From NCBI GenBank assembly GCA_963843575.1, contig CAWJKZ010000013.1, forward strand, positions 160,001 through 224,000: a DNA stretch of 64,000 nucleotides, in the 5' to 3' direction. Made by a program: the position numbers and the translations under genes. The notes under the pieces were generated by a model. That model was not told where the DNA came from and did not search any database. It saw nothing but the letters and a program-made list of their open reading frames with translations. Source of the DNA: an uncultured Acidobacteriota bacterium. Its GTDB lineage: Bacteria > Acidobacteriota > UBA6911. Below, piece by piece: positions 27,185-40,800 of the stretch. Position 1 is the stretch's first letter, and each line of letters begins with the position of its first letter.

Positions 27185-27201
27185 GCGGTGACGAAATTGC
27201 T
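27185..27201 (+). promoter_or_regulatory. Possible sigma54 (-24/-12) promoter for the mtr-like operon
   Basis: GG(27187-88)-N10-GC(27199-200) with TTGCT; -24 context (CGGTGA) deviates from TGGCAC. Confidence 0.3.
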
Positions 27202-27278: not shown

Positions 27279-29324
27279 ATGACTATGAGGGCGAAGAGAC
27301 CGACGGCGGTTCTTCTCTTTCTTTCTTTTTTCTCGATGGCGGCGCTAGGAATTGCCGCGTTTGTGAATGACTCGGAGAAGGTTTACAGTGCCATGGAGAA
27401 GGCCTTTTATCTCTCTCCTGAGGATGGTATCTGGATCCGCCCGGGTGTGAATCTAGCGATCCAGAACATCACGATACCGGCAGACCGCAAGCCGGTGGTT
27501 ACGTTCAGGATCACCGACGACAAGGGGCAGGGGTTGGATCGGACGGGTACGCTCACTCCCGGCACCGTCACGACCAGCTGGGTTTTCGCCTACATCCCGG
27601 AGAATGCCACGCAATACGTCGCCTACACGGTCCGAGCCCAGAAGAGCCCGATCACGAACGTGACGGAAATTCAGGCGTCGAGCGACCAGAACGGCAAGTA
27701 CGCCAGCCTGGGCGACGGGACCTACACCTACACATTCGGCACGACGCTCCCGGCCGCGTACGACACGACCGCGACCCACACGCTGGGCGTCTACTCGGTG
27801 CGTGACCTGCGCGAGTTCGGCCTGAGCCGCTACATCACCAACGTGCTGAACACCTTTGTGCCGGACGGCCGCGCGGTCACGAAGACCCGCGACGTCGTGC
27901 GCACCGCGGCCTGCAACCAGTGCCACGACCCGCTCGGGCTTCACGGCGGTTCGCGCCAGGACGTGCTGCTCTGCAACCTCTGCCACACGCCGCAATCAAA
28001 GGATCCTGACACGGGCAACACCGTCGACATGAAGGTGATGACGCACAAGATCCACATGGGCGCGGACCTGCCCAGCGTGCAGGCCGGGCAGCACTACCAG
28101 ATCATCGGCAACCAGCAGAGCGTCAACGATTACTCCGACGTCGTCTTCCCGCAGGACATTCGCAATTGCACGACCTGCCACAAGGACACGACCCAGGTCA
28201 ACAACTGGCTGCTCAACCCGACCCGGGACACCTGCGGCTCCTGCCACGACAACATCGACTGGACGAGCGGCAAGAACCACGTGGCCGGCCCCCAGCCTGA
28301 CGACCGCTACTGCGCCAATTGCCACTGGCCGGAGAGCGACTACGAGTACGACGCGACCATCGCGGGCGCTCACGTCCCACCCTACAAGTCGAAGCAGCTG
28401 TTCAACCCCAAGTTTGAAATGCTCGAAGTGACCAACACGGCTGCGGGCCAGTCCCCGACCGTCAAGTTCAAGGTCACGGATAAGACCGGCAAGGCAATTG
28501 CCCCCGCCATCATGGGCGGGACCTCGGGCCGCCTGTCACTGACCCTTGCAGGCCCGACCTCTGATTACCGCTGGTACCTGACCGAGGCGGCTAACACCGC
28601 GGAGTACGCCGACGGCGTGGCCACCTACACCTTCAAAGGAGTGATCCCGGCGACGGCCACGGGCACCTACGCCGTGGAGGCGGAGGGCTATCTTAACGCC
28701 ACTCTCAATCCCGGTACCGAGAAGCAGTTGAGCTACCGCGACGCATTTGATAACGTTGTAAAGCCGTTCGCGGTGACCGGAACGCTGGAAAACCGGCGCA
28801 CTGTGGTCGATCTGGCGAAGTGCAACAAGTGCCACGACAAACTGCAGCTGCACGGCAACAACCGGAACCAAATCGAAGCGTGCGTGGTTTGCCACAACCC
28901 GGCGACCACCGACGCGGCCCGCAGGCCCGCGGCAGCCCTCCCCGCGGAAGCGATCGACATGAAGATCATGATTCACAAGATCCACACGGGGGCGGAGCTG
29001 GCGAACGATTACACCGTCTACGGCTTCGGCAACACCGCAATCAACTTCAACGAAGTCGGTTACCCGGGCGACCGCCGCAATTGTCTCGGCTGTCACGTCG
29101 GGACTTCCTACCAGGTGCCCCTTGCTGCCTCGGTCACCTCGTCCACGACGCCGCGCAGCTTCTGGGATCCCATGAAGCCCACGTCGGCGGCGTGCCTGGG
29201 GTGCCACGACTCTGTGGACGCGGCCGCGCATGCGTTCGTCAACACGGCGACGTTCGGAGAGGCCTGCTCGGTCTGCCATAAGGAAGGTGCGGACGCTGCG
29301 GTGACAAAGGTCCACGCCCGATAG
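27279..29324 (+). CDS. mtrC: MtrC/OmcA-family decaheme c-type cytochrome
   Basis: Ten CxxCH motifs in two blocks of five, each preceded by a beta-rich domain; repeated MKxMxHKIHxG and FPQDIRNC/YPGDRRNC. Confidence 0.85.
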   Translation: MTMRAKRPTAVLLFLSFFSMAALGIAAFVNDSEKVYSAMEKAFYLSPEDGIWIRPGVNLAIQNITIPADRKPVVTFRITDDKGQGLDRTGTLTPGTVTTSWVFAYIPENATQYVAYTVRAQKSPITNVTEIQASSDQNGKYASLGDGTYTYTFGTTLPAAYDTTATHTLGVYSVRDLREFGLSRYITNVLNTFVPDGRAVTKTRDVVRTAACNQCHDPLGLHGGSRQDVLLCNLCHTPQSKDPDTGNTVDMKVMTHKIHMGADLPSVQAGQHYQIIGNQQSVNDYSDVVFPQDIRNCTTCHKDTTQVNNWLLNPTRDTCGSCHDNIDWTSGKNHVAGPQPDDRYCANCHWPESDYEYDATIAGAHVPPYKSKQLFNPKFEMLEVTNTAAGQSPTVKFKVTDKTGKAIAPAIMGGTSGRLSLTLAGPTSDYRWYLTEAANTAEYADGVATYTFKGVIPATATGTYAVEAEGYLNATLNPGTEKQLSYRDAFDNVVKPFAVTGTLENRRTVVDLAKCNKCHDKLQLHGNNRNQIEACVVCHNPATTDAARRPAAALPAEAIDMKIMIHKIHTGAELANDYTVYGFGNTAINFNEVGYPGDRRNCLGCHVGTSYQVPLAASVTSSTTPRSFWDPMKPTSAACLGCHDSVDAAAHAFVNTATFGEACSVCHKEGADAAVTKVHAR

Positions 29325-29330
29325 GTTCTT

Positions 29331-30260
29331 ATGTTCACAAAACGTGTTCTGCAGATCACGCTTTTGTTTTCCACCCTGTTCGTCCTGGCGGGGATTCTGA
29401 CCGGCGCGCAAGCGCCGGCGCAGAATCCCCCCCAGGGGGCCGCCCCGGCGACCGGGAGCGTCAATAACGAGGACTGTGCCGTTTGCCACGAGGACGTCGC
29501 GAAGGCATTCGACAAGAACCCCCACGCGGTGCTCGAAAAAAGCCCGAAGTTCAGCATGAAGAACTCGTGCGAATCGTGCCACGGCCCCGGGGAAGCCCAC
29601 GCGAGCAACGACGGCGACCGCACCAAGATCATCACGTTTCGGGATCAAGCCAAAAAGCTCTACAACGAGCAGTGCCTGACCTGCCACCGGAAGCACCCCG
29701 AGGTGAACGGTTTCGCGGGGAGCGCGCACTCGAAGTTCGGGCTTTCCTGCACCGATTGCCACCGCGTCCACCGCCCGGCCCCGACGACTCGCCTGCTGCA
29801 GCAGCCGGTTAACAACCTGTGCTTCAGCTGCCACGTGCAGAGCCGCACCGATTTCTCGAAGCCCTTCCATCACCGGGTGCGCGAAAACTCGATGCGTTGC
29901 ACCGATTGTCATCAGCCCCACAGCGGCATCGATTCGCGTCAGGTCCGGACCACCAGCTTCGGCGACTCTCCCTGCTTCAAGTGCCACACCGACAAGGAGG
30001 GCCCGTTCGTATTCGAGCACGCTCCGGTCGTGATACGCGATTGCCAGGCCTGCCATCAGCCCCACGGGTCGAACAACTCCAAGATGCTCGTGCGCGCCAC
30101 GGTGCGGGCGGTTTGCCTCGAATGTCACACGACCAGCAACGGTGTCCTTGGGGCCTCTCCGCCGGCATTCCACGACATCCGCAGCCCCCGGTTCCAGAAT
30201 TGCACTACCTGTCACGTGAAGATTCACGGCTCAAACGCCGACGTGAAATTCCTCAGGTGA
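29331..30260 (+). CDS. mtrA: MtrA/DmsE-family periplasmic decaheme cytochrome c
   Basis: Ten CxxCH motifs; GPFVFEHAPV, CHQPHGS, CTTCHVKIHGSN C-terminus. Confidence 0.9.
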   Translation: MFTKRVLQITLLFSTLFVLAGILTGAQAPAQNPPQGAAPATGSVNNEDCAVCHEDVAKAFDKNPHAVLEKSPKFSMKNSCESCHGPGEAHASNDGDRTKIITFRDQAKKLYNEQCLTCHRKHPEVNGFAGSAHSKFGLSCTDCHRVHRPAPTTRLLQQPVNNLCFSCHVQSRTDFSKPFHHRVRENSMRCTDCHQPHSGIDSRQVRTTSFGDSPCFKCHTDKEGPFVFEHAPVVIRDCQACHQPHGSNNSKMLVRATVRAVCLECHTTSNGVLGASPPAFHDIRSPRFQNCTTCHVKIHGSNADVKFLR

Positions 30261-30283
30261 GGACACAGGAGCTAACAACCGTG

Positions 30284-32440
30284 ATGCGCATGGCCCGCCA
30301 ACATATGTCGCCTGCTGCCCGACCCTCGTATTTGACCGCCGCGGCGCTCATGATGCTGCTGGCTGTCGTTGCGGCGCCCCTGTCAGGACAGTCCCCCCCG
30401 CCGCAGGAACAGAAGCAGGAGCCTCCGAAGGAGTCCGCCAAGGAGCAGTTCCGTGCGGACAGGGAGGGGCAGATCCTGGCCCCGACCCAGACCCCCTCCA
30501 TTCCATCCGATGAAGGCTTCACCCTTGGCGCCTACCAGGGTCATGCCGACGTCGAACTCGGATATCGCTGGCGTTCGGACGTCTCGGGTAACACCGATGT
30601 CTACCGGAGCATGGTCAACCTCGGGAGCGGCCCGAAACTGCTTCGGTCGAACTTCTCGTTGCGCTCCAACTACGGTGCCGGTACCCTGTTCGACCGGTTG
30701 GACGTTTCCGCAAACAGCTGGGGCGGCGACCCGTACAACACCCTCCGCATCAGCTTCGGCCTTTCGGACAAGTACGAATTTCGCGCGAACTACCGCAACC
30801 TGAACTACTACAACTATCTGCCGCAGTATGCCAACCCGCTGCTGCTCACCCGCGGCATCGCCTTCGGGCAGCACAGCCTGAATGTCACCAACCGCACGAG
30901 CGACTTCGAATTGAAGCTGTTCCCCAACAGCAGGGTCCGCCCCTTCGTGGGCTATTCGCGCAGTTCCGGCTTCGGCCCCGGCTTCACCACCGCGGAGTTC
31001 ACGGGGAACGAATTCCTGGTGGAAACGAACTGGCGCTACTCGTCGGACGACTATCGGGGCGGCGTCGAAATCTCGCTCCCCAAGACCGTCTTGACAGTCG
31101 AGCAGGGCTATAGGACCCTGCGCAACGACACCGGCGTCGATTCCGGCCCGAACAACGGCAACAACCCCAATGCGAGGTTCCTCGGAAACCCGGTCTTCCT
31201 GACCTCGCTCGACCGCGGCTACCACGACCGCACTACCCTGCCGTTTACCAAACTGGTAGCGAAATTCACCCCTTTCCGGTCGCTGAAGGTCACCGGCCGG
31301 TACATCTACTCCATGGCCGACCTCGACTCCAGTTACGGCGAGGTCACGTCGGGAGCGTTCGCCAACCTCGCGGAACGGCTGGTTTACCGGGCTGGTCTGG
31401 ACAACTTCGACACCCACGCCAAGCGGCCGGACCACAACGGCAGCTTCCTGGTCGAATTCTCACCCTTCAGCAGGCTGACCCTTCTCGACCAGTTCGAGAG
31501 CCGCAACAATCACACGAGCGGGTCCGCCCTGCTGGCGTCGATCTTCTACGGCTCACGCTCGTTGGCCGGACCCGGTCCGACGAGCGATGCCACGATCACC
31601 GACCTCGCCCGCTCGTACCTCGCGTTCAACCGGCTGAGCAACCTTGCCGAGGCCGAGTTCGACCTCCGGTGGGGCTTTGCCGTCCGCGGCGGCTACCGGT
31701 ATACCAATGCGGATGCCACGGTGGGCGACGCGGAGGGGAGTGACCTCATCGAAGGGGAAAGTTCCTCATACTCGCAAAACACGGGCATCGTCGGGGTGAC
31801 CTACCGGAAAGCCCGCTGGCTCCGCCTTGGTTTCGATTACGAGAAGAACGACACGAACGGCACGCTTACCCGGACCGATCTCCTGAATTTCGATCGTCTC
31901 CGGTTCGACTGGCGCGTCGGCTCCTGGCATCACTTCAGCACCAGCGGAAGGATCTGGGGTCTGCGCAACAGCAACGACCAGAGCGACATCGATCTCCAAT
32001 CCCACAACCGCAACTACAGTTTGGAACTCAACTACGACCCGACCGAACGCTACCATCTCAGCCTGGACTACTCCCGCTCCAGCATTCTCTCCGATATCTC
32101 GATCCTGCTCCCGCAGACGCTTCGGCTCGACCGGTCCCTCTTCGACGAAAAGAGCCACGGCCTGGGCGGCAGCATGGGGGTCGGCTTGTACCGCGGGACG
32201 CGCGTCGATTTCGGCTACCGGGGGATTTTCAACAGCGGCACCGCGCCGCTGGCGTACCACCAGCCTTTCGCGGAGCTGACGGTGCCCCTGCAGCACCGGC
32301 TGGCGTTCAAGACTTACTGGCAGTACTTCGGATACAACGAGAAGTCACCCTTCGGCGGGACCACGATCGACCGGGGTCCGCGTGGGTTCCAGGATTTTCA
32401 CACGCACCTGGTGACATTCTCGATCGCCTACCTGTATTAG
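30284..32440 (+). CDS. mtrB: Outer-membrane beta-barrel porin, MtrB/PioB-like (start uncertain, 30281-30305)
   Basis: Signal peptide, alternating aromatic beta strands, C-terminal aromatic residue, position after the MtrA-like gene. Confidence 0.7.
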   Translation: MRMARQHMSPAARPSYLTAAALMMLLAVVAAPLSGQSPPPQEQKQEPPKESAKEQFRADREGQILAPTQTPSIPSDEGFTLGAYQGHADVELGYRWRSDVSGNTDVYRSMVNLGSGPKLLRSNFSLRSNYGAGTLFDRLDVSANSWGGDPYNTLRISFGLSDKYEFRANYRNLNYYNYLPQYANPLLLTRGIAFGQHSLNVTNRTSDFELKLFPNSRVRPFVGYSRSSGFGPGFTTAEFTGNEFLVETNWRYSSDDYRGGVEISLPKTVLTVEQGYRTLRNDTGVDSGPNNGNNPNARFLGNPVFLTSLDRGYHDRTTLPFTKLVAKFTPFRSLKVTGRYIYSMADLDSSYGEVTSGAFANLAERLVYRAGLDNFDTHAKRPDHNGSFLVEFSPFSRLTLLDQFESRNNHTSGSALLASIFYGSRSLAGPGPTSDATITDLARSYLAFNRLSNLAEAEFDLRWGFAVRGGYRYTNADATVGDAEGSDLIEGESSSYSQNTGIVGVTYRKARWLRLGFDYEKNDTNGTLTRTDLLNFDRLRFDWRVGSWHHFSTSGRIWGLRNSNDQSDIDLQSHNRNYSLELNYDPTERYHLSLDYSRSSILSDISILLPQTLRLDRSLFDEKSHGLGGSMGVGLYRGTRVDFGYRGIFNSGTAPLAYHQPFAELTVPLQHRLAFKTYWQYFGYNEKSPFGGTTIDRGPRGFQDFHTHLVTFSIAYLY

Positions 32441-32501
32441 GGCCAATTAGAGCACAAAGCATCACGAAAACGTTACGGCGCCGCGATTCCCCACCACAAT
32501 A

Positions 32502-32664
32502 CATGTGGGTCCGGGCTTCAGCCCGGACGTCTCTTGATCTGACCTAATGTGGCGACGGGCCACGTTATAGCGACCGCAAACAGCGTCCGGGCTGAAGCCC
32601 GGACCCACATGAATTGTGTTTGGGTCGGGCGCCAACCCTTGGACAGCCTCTTCAAGCCCGGACG
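32502..32664. repeat. REP doublet (REPIN/BIME-like), copy A
   Basis: Perfect 28-bp IR CATGTGGGTCCGGGCTTCAGCCCGGACG (32502-32529/32584-32611); second copy with the same spacer at 47761-47914. Confidence 0.8.
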
Positions 32665-32734
32665 CAGTTTGCAGTCGCTATGCTGGGGAGCTGGAGCTCA
32701 ATGAGCTCTTGCTCCTGAATCGGACGCCCCCCCC

Positions 32735-32774
32735 AAAAAAATCAGCGCCCTTCCTCCGGGAAGAAGAAGGGCGC
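32735..32774 (-). terminator. Rho-independent terminator of sRNA copy 1
   Basis: Minus strand GCGCCCTTCTTC-TTCCCG-GAGGAAGGGCGC-TGATTTTTTT. Confidence 0.7.
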
Positions 32775-32864
32775 CGCTCGGGTGTAGGTGGGTATTAAGG
32801 GTGGAAAGGAGGTTGTATGTCGGAACGATTCTCCTTCTTTGGGTTGTACTTTGCTCTATCCGAC
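32735..32864 (-). ncRNA. Putative small RNA, copy 1
   Basis: Paralogous to 33060-33162; CU-rich core AACCUCCUUUCCACCCUUAAUACCCACCUACACCC; ends in a 12-bp GC hairpin plus U-tract; sigma54 site upstream. Confidence 0.65.
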
Positions 32865-32873
32865 ATTAGTGGA

Positions 32874-32889
32874 AGCACACTTTGCGCCA
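32874..32889 (-). promoter_or_regulatory. sigma54 promoter of sRNA copy 1
   Basis: Minus strand TGGCGCAAAGTGTGCT = GG-N10-GC, 11 nt before the conserved TCGGATAGAGCAAAG start. Confidence 0.65.
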
Positions 32890-33059
32890 TCGGCTTCGCC
32901 TGCTGCCGAATTGTGCCATAATCGTTTTCTGCTAAATCACTTACGAAAGAACACGTCGGTTGGGATGCAGCGGAAGTACAGCAGAATTTGGGTTTACTCA
33001 CCCGATGAGCGGGTTATTTGGCACAAATTTGGCCTGATGCCGCGCCTGCATGTCCCGAC

Positions 33060-33162
33060 AAAAAATCAGCGCCCCTCCTCCGGGAAGAGGAGGGGCGCCG
33101 CTCGGGTGTAGGTGGGTATAAGGGTGGAAAGGAGGTTTATAACTCCTTTGCTCTATCCGAGA
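33060..33162 (-). ncRNA. Putative small RNA, copy 2
   Basis: Same 5' end, CU-rich core and terminator as copy 1, with a compensatory C-G/U-A change in the terminator stem. Confidence 0.65.
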
Positions 33163-33171
33163 TTATCTATT

Positions 33172-33188
33172 AGCAAGCCCTCATGCCA
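33172..33188 (-). promoter_or_regulatory. sigma54-like promoter of sRNA copy 2
   Basis: Minus strand TGGCATGAGGGCTTGCT; near-consensus boxes but GG-N11-GC spacing (possible homopolymer error). Confidence 0.5.
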
Positions 33189-33448
33189 GTTTGAATGGGC
33201 TGGTTGGTATTCCTGTAAAGTTGGCAACAGCAAATCTTACCGCTGTATTTCGCCGCAGCCTCAAATCGGCGCTCGGTCTTTTTCGGGTGATCTGAGCCAA
33301 CAACGGTGGTAAAACACCCACTCACACGTTCTAAGTGCGCGGTTCCGCTTGAATGCCATTCTCGTGCCTGGCAGCGGGGTCGTGTAAACCTTTCGGTTGC
33401 TTCAATGTATCGGGGCGGCATGATAACCTATTACGGTGGCCGACATAT

Positions 33449-34330
33449 ATGAAGCGTGACACGGAGCAGTACAGTAGTGGTGTGCGGAGGGTTCTCGTCA
33501 TTACCCTTGCGCTGAACCTCGCTGTCGTGGCAGGGAAGCTGTTCGCCGGCATCCTGGCCGGTTCCCTGAGCGTGGTCAGCGACGCGCTGCACTCCTCGGC
33601 GGATTCGCTGAACAACATCGTCGGGATCTTTATAATCCGGGTCGCGAGCACGGCCCCCGACAAGGAGCATCCTTACGGCCACCACAAGTACGAGACGCTG
33701 GGAGCCTTCGGAATCGCGTGGTTCCTCCTTGTGACCGCCTTCCAGGTGGGTCAAGGCGCGGTCAAGCGGCTGCTGGGTTGGACACAGTCGGACGTCGAGG
33801 TCACCTCGCTGACGCTCGGAATTATGGTGGCAACACTTCTTGTGAACTTTTTCGTGTGGTTTTACGAGCGCCGGCGTGCGCGTGAGCTCGACAGCGCATT
33901 CCTGATGGCCGACTCGCAGCACACCCTGAGCGATATCGGGGTAAGCACGTCGATCCTGATCGGTCTGCTGCTGCTGCGCTTCGGGATCATCGACTTGGAC
34001 GCCGTGCTGGCCCTTGCGGTCGCCGGCATCATCACGTTCGCAGCCTACCAGATATTCGCGAGCACCATCCCCGTCCTGGTGGATCGGGCGCCGGTGGCGC
34101 CGGAGTTCGTCGCCGAAATCGTCCGCTCGACCCCGGGGGTGGAGTCCGTGCACGGTATCATGTCGCGCGGGGTGCCCGGCATGACCTTCATTTCCATGCA
34201 CCTGGTGGTGACTCCGCTGAGCACGCCCGAAGCCCACGCCATCACCGAGGATGTGGAGCGCAGGCTGGCGGAAAAGGTCGGTCCTTGCGAGGTGACGATC
34301 CACATCGAACCCGATGACAGGAGTTCCTAA
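33449..34330 (+). CDS. Cation diffusion facilitator (FieF-like) transporter
   Basis: SDALHSSAD, PDKEHPYGHHKYE, ADSQHTLSD, C-terminal VTIHIEP. Confidence 0.92.
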   Translation: MKRDTEQYSSGVRRVLVITLALNLAVVAGKLFAGILAGSLSVVSDALHSSADSLNNIVGIFIIRVASTAPDKEHPYGHHKYETLGAFGIAWFLLVTAFQVGQGAVKRLLGWTQSDVEVTSLTLGIMVATLLVNFFVWFYERRRARELDSAFLMADSQHTLSDIGVSTSILIGLLLLRFGIIDLDAVLALAVAGIITFAAYQIFASTIPVLVDRAPVAPEFVAEIVRSTPGVESVHGIMSRGVPGMTFISMHLVVTPLSTPEAHAITEDVERRLAEKVGPCEVTIHIEPDDRSS

Positions 34331-34382
34331 CGGGGCCGGCGGCGGGGCAGATCCCATCGTTGACGGCCGGCGTGAACCTTCC

Positions 34383-36484
34383 ATGATGAACCCGGGCAAG
34401 CCGAAACCAGACCTCCTGCGTGCGGACTCGATCGAGTTTGCGGACGTGTTCAATGCCGATCCCGTATCGGGCCGCATCACGCTCGGGAACGACCGCTACG
34501 TGATGTTCGATGCGGAGGCTGTCGGCAAGATGCGCCGGGAGCTGATCGACAATCTCGGGTGGGAGGTTGCGCGCGGCATCCTCGAGCGTGTGGGTTACCA
34601 GTCCGGACGAAACGACGCCCGTCAACTGGGGGCGCGCTACAGTTGGCCGTCCGATGAGGAGTGGCTCCGGGCCGGGCCTCGCCTGCATTTCCTGGAAGGG
34701 ATGGTCAAGGTTCGGGTGCGCGAACTGGACTTCGCACGCGGGGAACGCCGGTTTCGCATGAAGGGCGACTGGATCGAGTCCTACGAAGCCGAGCAGCACC
34801 TGAAGCAATACGGCGTCGGGTCCAGACCGGTCTGCTGGTCGCTCGAGGGCTACGCCACAGGGTATGCGAGCGAGTTTTTCGGCGAGGACATCGTCTGCTT
34901 CGAGGTCAGCTGCCGGGGCAAGGGCGACCCGGTTTGCAGCTTCGAGCTGCGGCCCTCCCGGGAGTGGGGCGGGGCCGCGCTCCCGATGCAGGAGATGCTG
35001 GCGGCGGTGCGCTTCACCGAGAGGTTCGATCGCTGTCTGCGCTCCATCAGTGAAATGGGGTGCGAGCTCGAACAGAGCTCCCTCGACGCGATTGTCACCA
35101 CCGACGCCAGGGGGATGATCACCTCGTGCAGCCAGGGAGGAAGCGAGCTCCTCGGCCTGCTGCCGGGAGAGGCGGTCGGGAGGCCGGTAAGCGCATTCTA
35201 CGCCAGGGGGCGCGCGGAGGCGGCGCGCCTCATGGAGCGCCTCCGACGCGAGGGCCGCATCCGCTACTATCTCACCGATATCATCACGGCCGGCGGCCGC
35301 AAAACCCCGATCGCCCTGGCGGCGTCGGCGATCAAGAACGCGCTCGGCCACGTCGTCGGTACTATCGGGGTGGCCCACAACCTCACCGAGATCCGGCGGC
35401 TCGAGGATGAGCTCGCCGCCAAGAACAGGTTCATGGCCAATATCCTGCAGGATTCGGCCGACGCGATCATCACGATGGACCCGGACGGCACCATCACGTC
35501 CTGGAACCGCGGCGCGGAATCCATCTTCGGCTATCCCGCCGACGAGGTGCTGGGCCGGTCCATCGAGGTCATCGTTCCCGCCGATCTACTGCGCGGCCAA
35601 CGAACTGGAACGGATCGCGCAGCGCGTCAGGAGCTCACGGGCGCGGTCCGCAACTACCAGACCGAGCGCATGACGAAGGACGGCCGGCGGCTCCAGGTGA
35701 TTTTCACCCGCACGGCGATCCGCGACGAAACCGGGCGCGTCGTCGGCAGTTCCGCGGTCCTGAAGGACGTCACCACGTTCCGGAACCTGGAACGGCAGCT
35801 TGCCGACGCCGAGCACCTGGCGACCCTGGGAGAGCTCTCGGCCGGGCTGGCGCACGAGATCAAGAACCCGCTCGCCGGCATCAAGGGCGCGATCGATGTC
35901 ATCCGCGACTCGCTCCCTGTCAACCGACCTGCACCGGGACGTGCTCGGGGACGTGTTGCACGAGGTGAACCGGATCGACAGGATCGTGCGGGACCTGCTG
36001 AACTATGCCAAGCCGAAGCCCCCCTCGCTCAACGCCATCGCGCTCCCGGAGGTGGCGCAGAGGCTGGTCGCCATGGCGCGCAAGTCCCCGAAGACCGAAG
36101 GCGTCTCGATCCGAGCTCGAGCAGTCCGGGGACATCCCCGGTTTCACGGGGGACGAAACGCAGCTCGAACAGGTGCTGCTGAACCTTCTGCTGAACGCCC
36201 AGAGCGCCGTCTCCCCCGGGGGCCACATCCTCGTCCGGCTGGCGTTCGAACCCGAGGAGCTGACGATCCGGATGGAGGTGGCGGACGACGGGCCGGGCAT
36301 ACCGGACGAGATCCGGAAACGCATCTTCCAGCCGTTTTTTACGACCCGGACGGAGGGGACCGGGTTGGGGCTGGCAACTTGCCTCAAAAACGTGCAGTAT
36401 CATGGCGGGACCATCAACGTGTTCAGTGCGCAGGGTCAGGGGACGCGGTTTGTCGTCACCTTGCCGCTGCTTTGTCGCTTTTAG
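34383..36484 (+). CDS. XylR-N/V4R-PAS-PAS sensor histidine kinase (frameshifts near 35590-35625, 35920 and 36115)
   Basis: GPRLHFLEG..SYEAEQH..PVCW.LEGYATGY..E..C..KGDPVC.F (XylR/V4R); two PAS domains; GLAHEIKNPL; QVLLNLLLNA; GTGLGL. Confidence 0.85.
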
Positions 36485-36496
36485 GCGATCTGACGC

Positions 36497-37884
36497 ATGC
36501 CCAAGGAAACGATACTCGTAGTCGACGATGAACGCCTCGTGCGCTGGTCGCTCCAGCAGAAGCTCGAGCAGTGGGGCTATCACGTCAGCCTCGCCGAGGA
36601 TGGCGCCACGGCGCTGGGCCGCGTCCAGCTCGACAATCCGGACCTGATCACCCTCGACGTGAAGCTTCCCGGATATGACCGGGATCGAGGTCCTGTCGGA
36701 GCTGCGCAACCGCAACGTGCACGTGCCCGTGATCGTGATCACGGCCTTCGGCGTGGTCGACGACGCCGTGCGCAGCCTCAAGCTCGGCGCCTACGATTTC
36801 ATCGAGAAGCCGATCAACTTCGAGAAGCTGGAGAATTCCGTCCGCAACGCCCTGGAAACGCGCCGGCTGCGCACCGAGGTCGCGCGCACGCACGAAATCC
36901 AGCGCAGCGAGTTCAGCGTCGACCGGATCATCGGCGTCTCCGACCACATCCGGGAGGTCCGCGAACTGATCAAGAAGATCGCCGGCAGCGAGGCTTCGAC
37001 CATCCTGATCCAGGGGGAGAGCGGGACCGGCAAGGACCTCGTCGCCCACGCCATCCACTACGAGTCGACGCGCCGCGACCGCCCCTTTTTCGCCATCAAC
37101 TGCGCCGCCATCCCCGAAAACCTGATGGAGTCCGAGCTGTTCGGCCACGAAAAGGGAGCCTTCACCGACGCCCGCTCCCAGAAAAAGGGGATGTTCGAAA
37201 TGGCCGACGGCGGCACCCTGTTCCTGGACGAGGTCAGCGAAATGACCCTCGGGATGCAGGCGAAGCTGCTGCGGGTCCTCGAAGGGCAGTCCTTCCGGCG
37301 CGTCGGCGGCGTCAAGAACATCAACGTCGATGTGCGCGTGATCGTCGCCTCCAACCGCAATCTCGAGGATGCCGTGCGGACCTCGAGGTTCCGGCAGGAC
37401 CTCTATTTCCGGCTCGCCATCATCCCCGCTGACCCTGCACCCGCTGCGGGAACACAAGGACGACATCCCGGCGCTGCTCGAGCACTTCATCCAATACTAC
37501 AACCAGAAATTCCGGAAGAGCATCCAGGGGCTCACGAAAGACGCCGAGGAACTGCTCCTGAACTACGACTGGCCCGGCAACATCCGCGAGCTCAAGAACG
37601 CCATCGAGAGGGTCATGATCCTGGCGGACGGAAACCGGGTGGCTTCGAAATACCTGCCGATCCGGATCTCCGAGGGGGGAGTGCTCCCCGTGCCGATGGG
37701 AGACGGGCAGGGCAACGGCGGCATCCAGCTGCCGGCCGGCGGCACTTCGCTCTACGACGTCGAACGCGAACTCATCCGCCAGGCGCTGGAACAATCCCGG
37801 GGCAACAAGACCACCGCAGCCCGTCTCCTCCGCATCACCCGCGACACCTTGCGCTACAAGGTGAAAAAGTACAACCTGGACTGA
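36497..37884 (+). CDS. NtrC-family sigma54-dependent response regulator (frameshifts near 36672 and 37425)
   Basis: REC domain; [50 protein letters not shown], Fis-type HTH. Confidence 0.92.
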
Positions 37885-37898
37885 ATCCGGCAACGACT

Positions 37899-40800
37899 AT
37901 GAAAAACCACCGCCCGCCTCTGCGCGTCGCCGTCGCAATCCTGCTGTCCGCCGCGGCTGTCCTGTCCACGCTCTACCTGGGCCGCGTCGGCGCTTCCCCG
38001 GCGCCTCAAGCGGCCCCGGACAAGACCGCAGCCGAAGCGGCCCGCAGGCGGGCCGTCGGAGACGGTCCTGCGTCTCAACAATCTCGGCATCGCCGAGTTG
38101 GAGCAGTTTCACTTCACGCAGGCAGCCTCCTATTTCGAGAAGGCGCGGGCCCAGGCGCCGCACCTGGTGCCCCTCGCCGTAAACCTGGCCATCGCTCTCT
38201 TCTACGACCGGAAGAACGACGAGGCCGAAGCGCATCCTGAAAGGCGTCGTGGCGACAGACCCGAAGCAGCGGGAAGCTCACTACGTGCTCGGGTTGTTGC
38301 ACCGCTCAACGGGAAGCAACGAGGAAGCGCTGGCTGACATGAAGGCGGCGCTCGCGCTCGATCCGCAGGATCCGGCCACACTTTACTTCGCCGGGGCTCT
38401 GAACTCGGCCCAGCACAACTGGGAGCCTGCCGTCCGCTACCTGCGTGACGCCTTGGCGCGCGAACCATTCAACGTATCCATCTACTATGCGCTGGCGACC
38501 GCGCTCGTGCAAAAGGGGGATACTCCGCAGGCCGAGAAGGTGATGGCCCAGTTTCAGGAGCTCAAGTCGCGCGGCACCGGGACGAGTTATGGCAACCAGT
38601 ACCTGGAGCAGGGGCGCTATGCGCAGGCCATTCAAATCCCGGGCCCGGGCGGGCCGTTCGGCCTGCCCGGCGCCCGCCCCCGCTTTACCGACCTATCCGC
38701 CGCCGGCGGGTTGACCTTTGTCCATGCGGGTCCCCGCGAGGCACCGCTCTTCGACGGCGCAGGCCGTCCGGACACCGCGGTGCCCGCCGCATTTGGTTCC
38801 GGTCTCGCCTTCCTGGACTACGACGGCGACGGTCGGCCGGACCTCTTCCTCGCCAATGTTTCGGGCCCCGGGGTCCTCTATCGAAACAAGGAGGGTGGCA
38901 CGTTCGAAGCCGTGGCCGCGTCGGGCATCGGCTTCGAGGGGACTGCCATGGGGGTCGCGGCGGGCGACTACGACAACGACGGGTTTCCTGATCTATTCAT
39001 CGCCGGAGTCGATGGGAGCGCGCTCTACCACAACGAGGGGAAGGGGACTTTCAGCGACAAGACGTCGCTCCTTTCCCAGGCCCTCAACGGGTCCTGGGCG
39101 ACGAGCCCGGCGTTCATCGACCTCGATCACGATGGCGACCTCGACCTGTTCATCACTTGTGCCGCCAAACCGGGGCGACCCGCCGCCCGCAACCTGTTGT
39201 ACAGGAACAACGGGGACGGCACGTTTGCCGAATCGGGCGAAGCCGCCGGCACGGCCGCTTCGGGTTTTGCGGCCTCGGCGGTCTACATGGACTACAACGG
39301 TTCCCGCGACATCGACGTGATCGTGCTCGGTGCGCCTCGGTGGAACCTGTACTCGAACAAGCGGGACGGCAGCTTCGCCGACTCGACCGTGGCCGCCGGC
39401 GTTCCGCCTTCCGATGGGTCGCTCGGGGCAGCCGCCGGCGACCTGGACGGCGACGGCCGGATCGATCTGTGCAGCGTGGGGGCCGGCCGTCCGGGAGTCG
39501 CCCGGATCCTATGGAATCAAGGGTCGGCCTACAAGATCCAGGAAGTGCCGCTCCCCTCGAAGGCGCAGCTGTGGAACGTGCGGGCACTGGATTACGACAA
39601 CGACGGCGACCTCGACCTCCTGCTGGCGGGCGACGAACTCCGCCTCCTCGAGAACGACGGCCGCAGGAGCTTTCAGGACGTGACCTCCGCGGTCGGGCTC
39701 GACCGGATCCAGGCTTCAGGGGCGCGCGCCCTCGCCGTGGCCGACTACGACCGGGACGGCGACCCCGATGTCGTCGTCAGCCGGTGCGGCCGGCCGGCCG
39801 TCCTGCTGCGAAACGACGGCGGCAACCGCAACCGCTTTTTCCGGCTCTCCCTGCGGGGCAAGGCGGACAACTACTTCGGCGTGGGAGCGAAAGTCGAGTG
39901 GGCCGCCGGCGGCCTGTGGCAGCACAGGGAACCGGACGGGGACGCGGGTTACATGAGCCAGAGCTCGGGCGAGATGCTGCTCGGACTGGGCAGGTTCGCC
40001 GCACCCGACTACGTCCGGGTTTTGTGGCCTACGGGGGTGCTGCAGTCGGAGATACCCGCCAAGGATGCCGGCAAACTGGTGCTGACCGAACTCGACCGCA
40101 AAGGCACCTCGTGCCCGATTCTATATGCCTGGAACGGAAGCGCCTACGAGTTCGTGACCGATTTCCTCGGCGGCAGCGGCATGGGTTACCTGCAGTCGCC
40201 CGGCAATTACGGCATTCCGGATACGGACGAATACGTCAAGATAACGGGAGCACAACTCCGTCCGCAGGGGGACCGGCTTTCCCTCAAAATGGCAAATCAG
40301 CTCGAAGAAGTCATGCTCTTCGACTCGGTGCGCCTGCTGGCGGTCGATCACGCCGCCCACACCGAAATATTCCCGAACGAACGCCTCATGGCCGCGCCGC
40401 CGTTTCCCGGCCACCGTATCTACACGGCGACTTCGCCCCGGCCCGTCGCGTCGGCCCTGGACGGCAGCGGTGCATCCTGGCAGCACGCGCTGGCAGCCGT
40501 CGACCGGGATTATGTCCGTGGCTTCCGGTTGCTCCCGTTCAAAGGGTATGCCGAGGAGCACACGCTCGAGCTCGGGCTCGGGGACCTTCGCGGGAGCAGC
40601 CGCACCGTGTTGCTCATGGACGGCTGGATCGATTACGCAAACTCCAGCTCCAACTTCTCCGCCGCGCAGGCCGGCGTCAAACTGGTCCCCCCCTATCTGC
40701 AGGTGTGGGATTCCGGTGGCTGGCGCACCGTTATGCACGACATGGGGTTTCCGGCGGGATTGCCCAAAACAATGATCGTCGACCTGTCGGGGAAACTCCC

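Follow-up and report, generated by a model that had tools for sequence, protein, structure and literature searches.

Paralogous small RNA genes with sigma-54-type promoters form a new RNA family in uncultured Acidobacteriota

Introduction

Positions 32735 to 33188 of a 64,000-nt stretch of DNA from an uncultured Acidobacteriota bacterium (contig CAWJKZ010000013.1, assembly GCA_963843575.1; the whole stretch is called the window below) had been described, from the letters alone, as carrying two tandem small RNA (sRNA) genes with sigma-54-type promoters and an anti-Shine-Dalgarno (anti-SD) core. This locus raises the question whether the two units are genuine RNA genes, by what they would be switched on and on what they would act. 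The two units are real members of a new sRNA family, which is wired like the Qrr/LuxO system of Vibrio and is carried by one family of uncultured soil and sediment Acidobacteriota. In the following, G000 denotes the window's own genome, G001 its sister species, other G numbers genomes of relatives, and L numbers fetched loci or metagenome contigs.

Two paralogous units on the minus strand

Reading the sequence from 33188 down to 32735 gave two paralogous units on the minus strand, about 300 nt apart, a short form (copy A) and a long form (copy B; coordinates in Table 1); no third copy was found in G000. The four features of the preliminary description, namely a -24/-12 motif ahead of an identical start, a 5' hairpin, a CU-rich core and a terminator with U-tract, were all present at their predicted positions. 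Both units have the 5' end GGAUAGAGCAAAG. Unit B consists of the promoter TGGCGCAAAGTGTGCT, 10 nt, TCGGATAGAGCAAAG, AAGGAG, 22 nt, CCUCCUU, the core UCCACCCUUAAUACCCACCUACACCCGAGC, the terminator and seven T. In unit A, the promoter TGGCATGAGGGCTTGCT is followed by the same TCGGATAGAGCAAAG, AAGGAG, 8 nt, CCUCCUU, a core which is one base shorter, the terminator and six T. The promoter motifs end 10 nt (B) and 11 nt (A) before TCGGATAGAGCAAAG. The proposed sizes (~130 and ~100 nt) and starts fit.

Copy A is devoid of a 27-nt stretch between GCAAAG and GAG and has a hairpin loop of 8 nt; orthologues of this short copy occur in G001 and in the metagenome locus L153. From AACCTCC to the U-tract, the differences between the copies amount to one indel of 1 nt (TTAATA versus TTATA) and three substitutions in the terminator stem. 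The core was rightly called nearly invariant, this indel being the one difference between A and B there, and the differences between the two terminator stems are compensatory. Beyond promoter and terminator the units could not be aligned, as had been noted. Three details were corrected: the arms AAGGAG and CUCCUU of the 5' hairpin, which had been termed variable, are invariant and only the stretch between them varies; the anti-SD is predicted to be sequestered in this hairpin; and the promoter of copy A has a non-canonical spacer in this assembly. The terminators do show the U-tract and the compensatory changes, with stems of 15 instead of 12 pairs. The U-tract of copy B is directly followed on the minus strand by a run of eight G (32727-32734), a homopolymer prone to sequencing error.

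Distribution and novelty of the RNA family

A covariance model (R1) was built from 21 distinct copies (alignment A2). Copy B was matched with 154 bits (E = 2.9e-34) and copy A with 102 bits (E = 2.7e-21). Such a model had been proposed as a check, and it recovered the element in one Acidobacteriota family, where 20 of 51 genomes and 7 of 11 genera have it. Among the 86 genomes of the same class outside this family no match was obtained (20/137 in the class, all 20 in this family); the order holds this one family only, hence, a search at order level equals the family search. In a BLAST-type search the element was detected in 18 of 61 genomes including G000, that is, in 17 of 36 relatives of the same family and in none of 24 genomes from other families; copy B is 80-97% identical to the copies in these 17 other genomes. 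An exact 24-mer of the core was found in 17 stretches among 185,579 species (one genome each), all of which are titled as metagenome-assembled genomes of Acidobacteriota, Acidobacteria or Terriglobia, and in 58 metagenome stretches. Each carrier genome has one or two copies, and tandem pairs were found in G000, G001 and G007 (by R1) and in 10 of the 58 metagenome stretches. Across genera the sRNA is 80-97% identical, compared to 45-94% for the neighbouring cytochrome MtrC and 57-87% for the neighbouring kinase.

The whole window was compared to Rfam 15 at gathering thresholds, giving 0 matches. With a permissive E ≤ 10 for the region 32400-33500, the best scores on the sRNAs were 16.4, 14.6 and 13.7 bits (cut-offs 50, 58.8 and 65.3), which is sub-threshold noise. 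Thus, the units do not belong to any Rfam 15 family, including Qrr, CrcZ, CcsR1, ar14, Pseudomon-1/ErsA and Acido-1. In the portions of the literature returned by full-text searches no description of this RNA family was found, and the earlier claim of an undescribed family holds to this extent. The same searches returned no characterised regulatory RNA in Acidobacteriota.

The block might be a piece of mobile or repetitive DNA (REP-like or MITE-like) and no gene at all, as REP-like hairpin repeats adjoin it at 32500-32720. These repeats are located outside the conserved block, however, terminal repeats were not seen, and the one or two copies per genome are always syntenic beside a kinase-regulator operon. 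We regard this explanation as hardly credible.

Non-coding character and predicted structure

Several features suggest a non-coding element transcribed from the minus strand. The consensus RNA contains no ATG, GTG or TTG, single-base indels occur among homologues inside the most conserved stretch (CCCUAAUA, CCCUUAAUA, CCCUUAAAUA, CCCUUAUA), and in the terminator scan a U-tract was found 3' of the hairpin on the minus strand only. An alternative would be a functional plus strand, since the long copies read AAGGAGG-N5-ATG TCG GAA CGA TTC in that direction, i.e., a strong Shine-Dalgarno (SD) sequence (GGAAAGGAGG), an ATG and a short open reading frame (ORF; MSERFSF...) antisense to the RNA. This candidate was rejected: the ATG is absent in several copy types (the short copies G000_A and G001_A as well as the G061/G073 type), and no conserved peptide results: frame and peptide differ in G028, and the length is 10 codons in genus g10 and more in genus g1. 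As U-tract, promoter and upstream site are all oriented for the minus strand, a coding plus strand is extremely improbable.

The consensus fold consists of two helices, the 5' hairpin and the terminator. In the family alignment, 4 of the 15 terminator pairs change on both sides. The terminator has 11 covarying cells, whereas the mean of shuffled alignments was 4.2 and the observed value was reached in 0 of 500 shuffles; when the partners were slid, the fraction of paired cells dropped from 99% to 49-63%. In the 5' hairpin 6 of 7 pairs never vary and, therefore, covariation neither supports nor refutes the pairing AAGGAG:CUCCUU. This pairing appeared in the minimum-free-energy folds of copy A and homologues and in the consensus fold. 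Folds of single sequences had z-scores of -2.9 to -6.6 (copy A: -44.2 kcal/mol, z = -5.5). About 30 nt between hairpin and terminator are predicted to be unpaired. A C/U-rich stretch of about 45 nt (AACCUCCUUUCCACCCUUAAUACCCACCUACACCCGAGC) is nearly invariant; its 5' part is CCUCCUU, which we take to be the anti-SD sequence (the 16S 3' end is absent from this assembly).

For comparison across the family, copies preceded by 115 nt or more of sequence were collected from genomes and metagenomes, giving a set of 74 distinct ones. The AAGGAG arm is found in 73 of them. The exception is a minimal variant on metagenome contig L125, which has a sigma-54 promoter 16 nt before CCUCCUU and no AAGGAG arm, so that the anti-SD would be unmasked there.

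Sigma-54-type promoters

A sigma-54 promoter was taken as GG-N10-GC (consensus TGGCAC-N5-TTGC) located some 12 nt ahead of the start. This pattern is present ahead of copy B; copy A has N11. Within the window the strict pattern occurs twice where 0.83 occurrences are expected, hence, the window alone proves little. Among the 74 copies, 51 have the strict motif TGG[CT][AG][CT]-N5-[TG]TGC (TGGYRY-N5-KTGC) at a fixed distance, compared to 13 of 3999 windows in the background of these loci, which bears out the expectation of a conserved -24/-12 site in homologues. In ten further copies a relaxed form, GG-N10-GC with TTGC, occupies this place. As 917 of 3999 background windows contain the relaxed motif too, position alone counts for these ten copies. 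Together, 61 of 74 copies have a promoter motif at the fixed distance, and the RNA does occur as sibling copies with promoters of the sigma-54 type, as proposed for the window. The GC element lies 12-15 nt before the conserved GGAUAG (mostly 14; 13 in copy B), a distance which fits a start at or just before the GG.

Putative upstream activator element and adjacent two-component operon

Upstream of the sigma-54-type copies a shared element is present at about -150 to -105. In G017 it reads TGGGTGAAATCCCATTTTAGATGGGTTTTGTCACCCA and has the same two-site layout as in copy A. Between -180 and -90, 14 of 20 sigma-54-type copies have the palindrome GGG[TG]-N5-7-[AC]CCC, which none of the three copies lacking a -24/-12 motif shows. 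The mean number of GGGT/ACCC half-sites there was 2.70, versus 0.40 and 1.00 in the flanking windows. The six copies that make up the pairs of G000, G001 and G007 have a promoter and upstream half-sites each, and three of the six have the full palindrome. These pairs consist of two separately promoted paralogues with a common seed, as in a Qrr-like circuit, and one regulator would presumably serve both copies. A coarse scan of the genome for a -24/-12-like motif with GGGT-N6-8-ACCC within 200 nt gave 6 sites, with ~8 expected by chance; one of the six is sRNA B.

The genome encodes RpoN (DNA-binding domain with 199.7 bits), so that rpoN, a gene for an enhancer-binding protein and putative upstream activator sites are all present. 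The divergent operon next to the sRNAs codes for a histidine kinase and an NtrC-family response regulator. In G025, where both genes are intact, the kinase orthologue has the domains PAS-PAS-HisKA-HATPase_c, and the regulator REC, sigma-54 AAA+ and HTH_8; in the window's genus the kinase has additional XylR_N and V4R domains. The nearest NCBIfam models are AtoS/AtoC, NtrC and ZraR, and the scores are below every equivalog cut-off. Regulator orthologues were defined by at least 81% identity over the AAA+ part (paralogues ≤ 55%). In the family, 29 of 51 genomes have one, among them 18 of the 20 that bear the sRNA. In 17 of the 18 genomes holding both, the regulator gene lies divergently on the sRNA contig within ~3 kb. 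An orthologue is missing in two carriers, namely the fragmented G011, with a completeness of 86%, and G005, which is 99% complete and whose sRNA has a TTGACA-type promoter instead of the sigma-54 motif. Because of the promoter type, the shared upstream element and the conserved adjacency, the adjacent NtrC-type regulator is the most likely activator of both sRNA promoters; this is a well-motivated assignment made on sequence grounds.

Proposed mechanism and search for targets

We favour, with some reservation, the reading that the units encode trans-acting, base-pairing sibling sRNAs under sigma-54/NtrC-type control, specific to this bacterial family. Each copy would be self-contained, with two GGGT-N6-ACCC-like sites about 105-150 nt upstream, a -24/-12 promoter, an RNA of 100-130 nt and a terminator. 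The divergent PAS histidine kinase would phosphorylate its NtrC-type partner, which would then bind the upstream sites and allow sigma-54 RNA polymerase to transcribe the RNAs. In the transcript, CCUCCUU is predicted to be masked by the invariant AAGGAG and the rest of the C/U-rich stretch to be single-stranded. The RNA could pair with G-rich translation-initiation regions of several mRNAs and lower their translation, and the two siblings, sharing the seed, could act additively as the Qrr sRNAs do.

Pairing with G-rich initiation regions is favoured because the conserved stretch begins with CCUCCUU. About 60 nt are conserved in sequence across genera in which the neighbouring proteins are much more diverged, and the predicted folds leave much of this stretch unpaired. 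A sequence kept invariant without structure is a property of base-pairing sRNAs with multiple targets, e.g., of the Qrr core, while RNAs binding proteins tend to conserve shape rather than sequence.

Target searches covered G000 and the syntenic loci. A short-word BLAST of the reverse complement of core and 5' part against G000 returned no match longer than 13 contiguous nt, as expected by chance. RNAduplex was applied to 45,473 candidate start sites, of which 3,017 remained after GC3 filtering, and gave no outlier because many G-rich sites score alike in a genome of 64% GC. The start regions of mtrC, mtrA and the genes of the cation-diffusion-facilitator (CDF) protein, the kinase and the regulator showed no extended pairing with the RNA. 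Across 12 syntenic loci, 9-mers with complementarity to the RNA were no more frequent than chance or were on the wrong strand.

The RNA might also be real and serve as a protein decoy, either for CsrA via GGAUAG and AAGGAG or for a binder of C-rich RNA. CsrA is encoded in G000, both motifs are nearly invariant and 10-25 nt apart, and a conserved mRNA target did not emerge. Known CsrA sponges have many GGA loops, however, and here only two GGAs are conserved, with AAGGAG in a predicted stem. In addition, the strongest conservation is that of the GGA-free C/U-rich stretch, and the minimal variant L125 has no AAGGAG arm. With CsrA present and Hfq not found, a decoy role stays a minor rival, and a rather improbable one.

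A number of observations weigh against base-pairing siblings under sigma-54 control. No conserved mRNA target site was found in G000 or in the syntenic loci. The best candidate from the single genome, C25:218371 (19 nt of complementarity over the SD, -30.9 kcal/mol, rank 499 of 45,473), was rejected: no more than 10 of the 51 genomes have the gene, and not even the sister species G001 keeps the site. No Hfq was detected in G000, which in a genome of 88% completeness is not evidence of absence. The anti-SD itself is predicted, from the folds, to be sequestered in the AAGGAG:CUCCUU hairpin. Among the 74 copies, 13 have no -24/-12 motif. Eleven genomes have the regulator orthologue and no sRNA; no R1 match at E ≤ 10 was obtained near the regulator in these genomes, hence, the regulator must have other targets. 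In this assembly, copy A has the spacer GG-N11-GC, and the kinase and regulator genes are both frame-broken. Finally, contigs from RNA libraries (labelled X) exceed the predicted transcripts: that of X1 runs 130 nt upstream of the predicted start of copy B, those of X3 and of X4 record 3 run past the terminator, and that of X4 record 5 continues 255 nt upstream in a relative.

Two of these points were accompanied by further observations. The rejected candidate gene C25:218371 (L084 in G000) encodes an acidic protein of 139 amino acids, and a GG-N10-GC motif is located upstream in L084, L085 and L088. In the eleven regulator-only genomes (L066-L076), the kinase gene comes right after proC, with which it is co-oriented, and neither a sigma-54 promoter nor an upstream palindrome is visible upstream of the kinase gene.

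A more speculative extension, to which we attach little probability, is that a phylum-specific RNA holds an anti-SD copy masked by a built-in SD decoy, which would be released on a signal from a redox- or metal-sensing kinase and then compete with ribosomes for mRNAs with a strong SD. The result would be a global and tunable throttling of translation coupled to the Mtr genes of extracellular electron transfer, and siblings using sigma-54 and sigma-70 in some lineages would integrate several inputs.

RNA-library contigs and transcript boundaries

Twenty public sequencing runs contained small shares of the sampled words (0.04-0.15). In all four runs examined (four studies), contigs from RNA libraries contained the core at 90-100% identity. 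These records are contigs and not reads, so that ends, strand and level are not readable, and carry-over of DNA is possible. The contigs X1 record 1, X3 and X4 records 3 and 5, which exceed the predicted 5' end or the terminator, could mean that the block is part of a longer transcript, i.e., a processed 5' or 3' region or read-through. The conservation, however, runs from GGAUAG to the U-tract with flanks that cannot be aligned, the promoter motif keeps its distance in most copies, the next gene downstream is convergent, and contigs can neither show transcript ends nor be taken as free of DNA. A longer transcript is quite improbable in our view.

State of the module in this assembly

In comparison to G001 and 10 further loci, G000 has single-base insertions at 33177 (spacer of promoter A), 35918 and 36113 (kinase) and 36666 (regulator). 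The tblastn matches of kinase orthologues all stop at residue 534, and the two pieces of the regulator ORF are offset by 178 nt, compared to 177 nt in each of the 11 other loci. This could indicate a module decaying in G000, with promoter A disabled, kinase and regulator turned into pseudogenes, and the RNAs silent or transcribed from other promoters. In favour of decay, the N11 spacer is found here only (G001 and L153 have N10), the reading frame is consistent in the 11 other loci, and a sigma-70-like sequence, CTGGCA-16-GATAAT, overlaps promoter A. Against it, the promoter and the upstream site of copy B are intact, and single-base indels between G000 and G001 are scattered across the whole 11-kb stretch (78 gap positions in a 5.7-kb block), which together with the 88% completeness of the genome (27 contigs, 64% GC) fits indel errors of the assembly. 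Assembly error is at least as likely as decay, and we consider a decaying module unlikely.

Promoter turnover within the family

The 13 copies without a -24/-12 motif are of several types. One is copy A of the window, which has N6 instead of the N5 of the strict pattern; at the same position G001 and L153 read TGGCAY-GAGGG-TTGC, with the spacing GG-N10-GC. Two copies (G005, L106) have promoters of the type TTGACA-N17, and L117, outside the 74-copy set, is the same by eye. Four copies, L077 (G061), L079 (G073), L114 and L126, have promoters of the type TTGAAA-N17-AATAAT together with an extra 5' hairpin. Another five (L099, L109, L135, L148, L149) are the short members of tandem pairs from metagenomes and have TTGACA-N17, and the remaining one, L146, is a single copy of unclear type. 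Thus, there is promoter turnover within the family, as read from these sequences, with sigma-54 as the majority state.

In the pairs L099, L109, L148 and L149, the short sibling is of the sigma-70 type and has a different 5' end, and the long sibling keeps GG-N10-GC; siblings of one RNA family appear to be wired to different sigma factors. The extra hairpin of L077, L079, L114 and L126 has the form GGCAYYGTTTC...GAAACGRTGCC and is located about 45 nt before GGAUAG. The G061 variant is located between proC and the kinase gene.

Comparison with known systems

The closest parallel in wiring is Qrr1-5 with LuxO and sigma-54 in Vibrio. Similarities are siblings of about 100 nt with their own sigma-54 promoters and terminators, an NtrC-type activator (here a presumed one), and a long, invariant and unstructured stretch common to the siblings. 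In Vibrio, one Qrr gene is divergently adjacent to the regulator gene (qrr1-luxO). On the other hand, there is no similarity in sequence or structure (no Rfam match at gathering thresholds or at E ≤ 10), the phylum is different, Hfq was not found here, and the acidobacterial core contains an anti-SD masked by an SD-like arm.

CrcZ of Pseudomonas acts as a protein sponge through repeated CA-rich motifs. Such repeats are not evident in the RNA described here, which is shorter and has no Rfam match to CrcZ. The likeness is in the arrangement of a sigma-54 sRNA gene beside the activating two-component system (CrcZ/CrcY with CbrB, NrsZ with NtrC), which is known from Pseudomonas (PMC8871633, PMC6296734). 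The 'cuckoo' RNAs CcsR1-4/alpha-r14 of Alphaproteobacteria are similar in being tandem siblings with a C/U-rich, anti-SD-like motif; the scores were far below threshold (CcsR1 13.7 bits versus a cut-off of 65.3; ar14 14.6 versus 58.8). The motif here, CCUCCUUUCC, spans a stem and the single strand after it, whereas the cuckoo RNAs have CCUCCUCCC in hairpin loops, and cuckoo RNA promoters depend on RpoHI/HII, another class than the promoters here. Pxr of Myxococcus is a developmental sRNA whose gene is reported to lie beside that of an NtrC-like activator, with tandem duplicates in some relatives; its sequence is unrelated, the phylum differs, and there is no Rfam match here.

The wiring is known from Qrr/LuxO, CrcZ/CbrB and NrsZ/NtrC; new is the RNA family, which has an unusual anti-SD, predicted to be self-masked, and in some lineages another class of promoter. 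Acidobacteriota are among the most abundant phyla in soil. In at least 7 genera and in metagenomes, a module of sensor kinase, NtrC-type activator, upstream site, sigma-54 promoter and sRNA can be read from the sequence. The different promoter states (sigma-54, two sigma-70-like types and the minimal form) are a natural experiment on the rewiring of sRNA genes, and the covariance model R1 could seed an Rfam family.

Genomic surroundings and the mtr genes

The coordinates of all features are listed in Table 1. The placement of the sRNAs between the mtr conduit and a sigma-54 two-component system, as first described, is correct: mtrCAB is present on the other side of the sRNAs, and the arrangement is conserved.

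Table 1. Features of the sRNA locus and its neighbourhood in the window.
Feature	Position	Strand	Remarks
sRNA copy B, long form	32861-32735	-	~127 nt, GGAUAG to end of U-tract; start possibly 1-3 nt upstream, near 32863
sRNA copy A, short form	33158-33060	-	~99 nt
Intrinsic terminator of copy B	32743-32776	-	terminator scan: 15-pair stem, 4-nt loop; then T7 at 32741-32735
Intrinsic terminator of copy A	33067-33100	-	terminator scan: 15 pairs (11 G-C), 4-nt loop; then T6 at 33065-33060
Promoter of copy B	32874-32889	-	pattern match: TGGCGCAAAGTGTGCT, TGGCGC-N5-GTGCT, canonical GG-N10-GC
Promoter of copy A	33172-33188	-	TGGCATGAGGGCTTGCT, TGGCAT-GAGGGC-TTGCT, GG-N11-GC, extra base 33177
Putative upstream activator site, copy B	32989-33015	-	AACCCGCTCATCGGGTGAGTAAACCCA; palindrome GGGT-N6-ACCC
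Putative upstream activator site, copy A	33284-33320	-	TGGGTGTTTTACCACCGTTGTTGGCTCAGATCACCCG; two imperfect sites ~21 nt apart
CDF efflux protein, between sRNAs and kinase	33353-34330	+	Pfam Cation_efflux, ZT_dimer
Sensor histidine kinase	34314-36490	+	Pfam XylR_N, V4R, PAS, HisKA; frame broken after ~residue 534
NtrC-family response regulator	36497-38240	+	Pfam REC, sigma-54 AAA+; HTH_8 in intact orthologue; frame broken near 36666
mtrC	27279-29324	+	Pfam MtrC/MtrF and multihaem domains (mtr genes together)
mtrA	29331-30260	+	see mtrC
Putative mtrB porin	~30270-32440	+	mtr genes convergent with sRNA B

Of 12 fetched loci, 9 have mtrC and mtrA next to the sRNA, on the side opposite the operon, and the MtrC and MtrA orthologues of G025 pass the NCBIfam cut-offs for OmcA/MtrC and DmsE decahaem proteins. 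MtrC was found in 15 of 51 genomes of the family, 14 of which carry the sRNA. Six carriers are without MtrC, namely five in genus g2 and the fragmented G011. The association of sRNA and Mtr is strong but not obligatory, and the related genomes are not independent. As the sRNA lies beside the Mtr conduit in most carriers and is present in 14 of the 15 MtrC-bearing genomes, it may link post-transcriptional control to metal respiration. The CDF gene was found at this position in only 2 of 12 relatives' loci examined (tblastn matches in L040 and L048).

Hairpin repeats of the REP-like kind (GTCCGGGCTTCAGCCCGGAC and variants) are located at 32500-32720, between the end of mtrB and sRNA B. They caused spurious matches to microRNA families when Rfam was scanned permissively.

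About 80 nt upstream of mtrC (window ~27187-27200), a conserved GG-N10-GC motif ending in GAAAATTGCTT was noticed, which is also present in L040-L043, L046, L047 and L049. In genus g10 it is preceded by the palindrome TGATGAAATTTACATCA. Judging from these motifs, mtrCAB itself may be sigma-54-dependent, with a different and possibly Fur-box-like operator.

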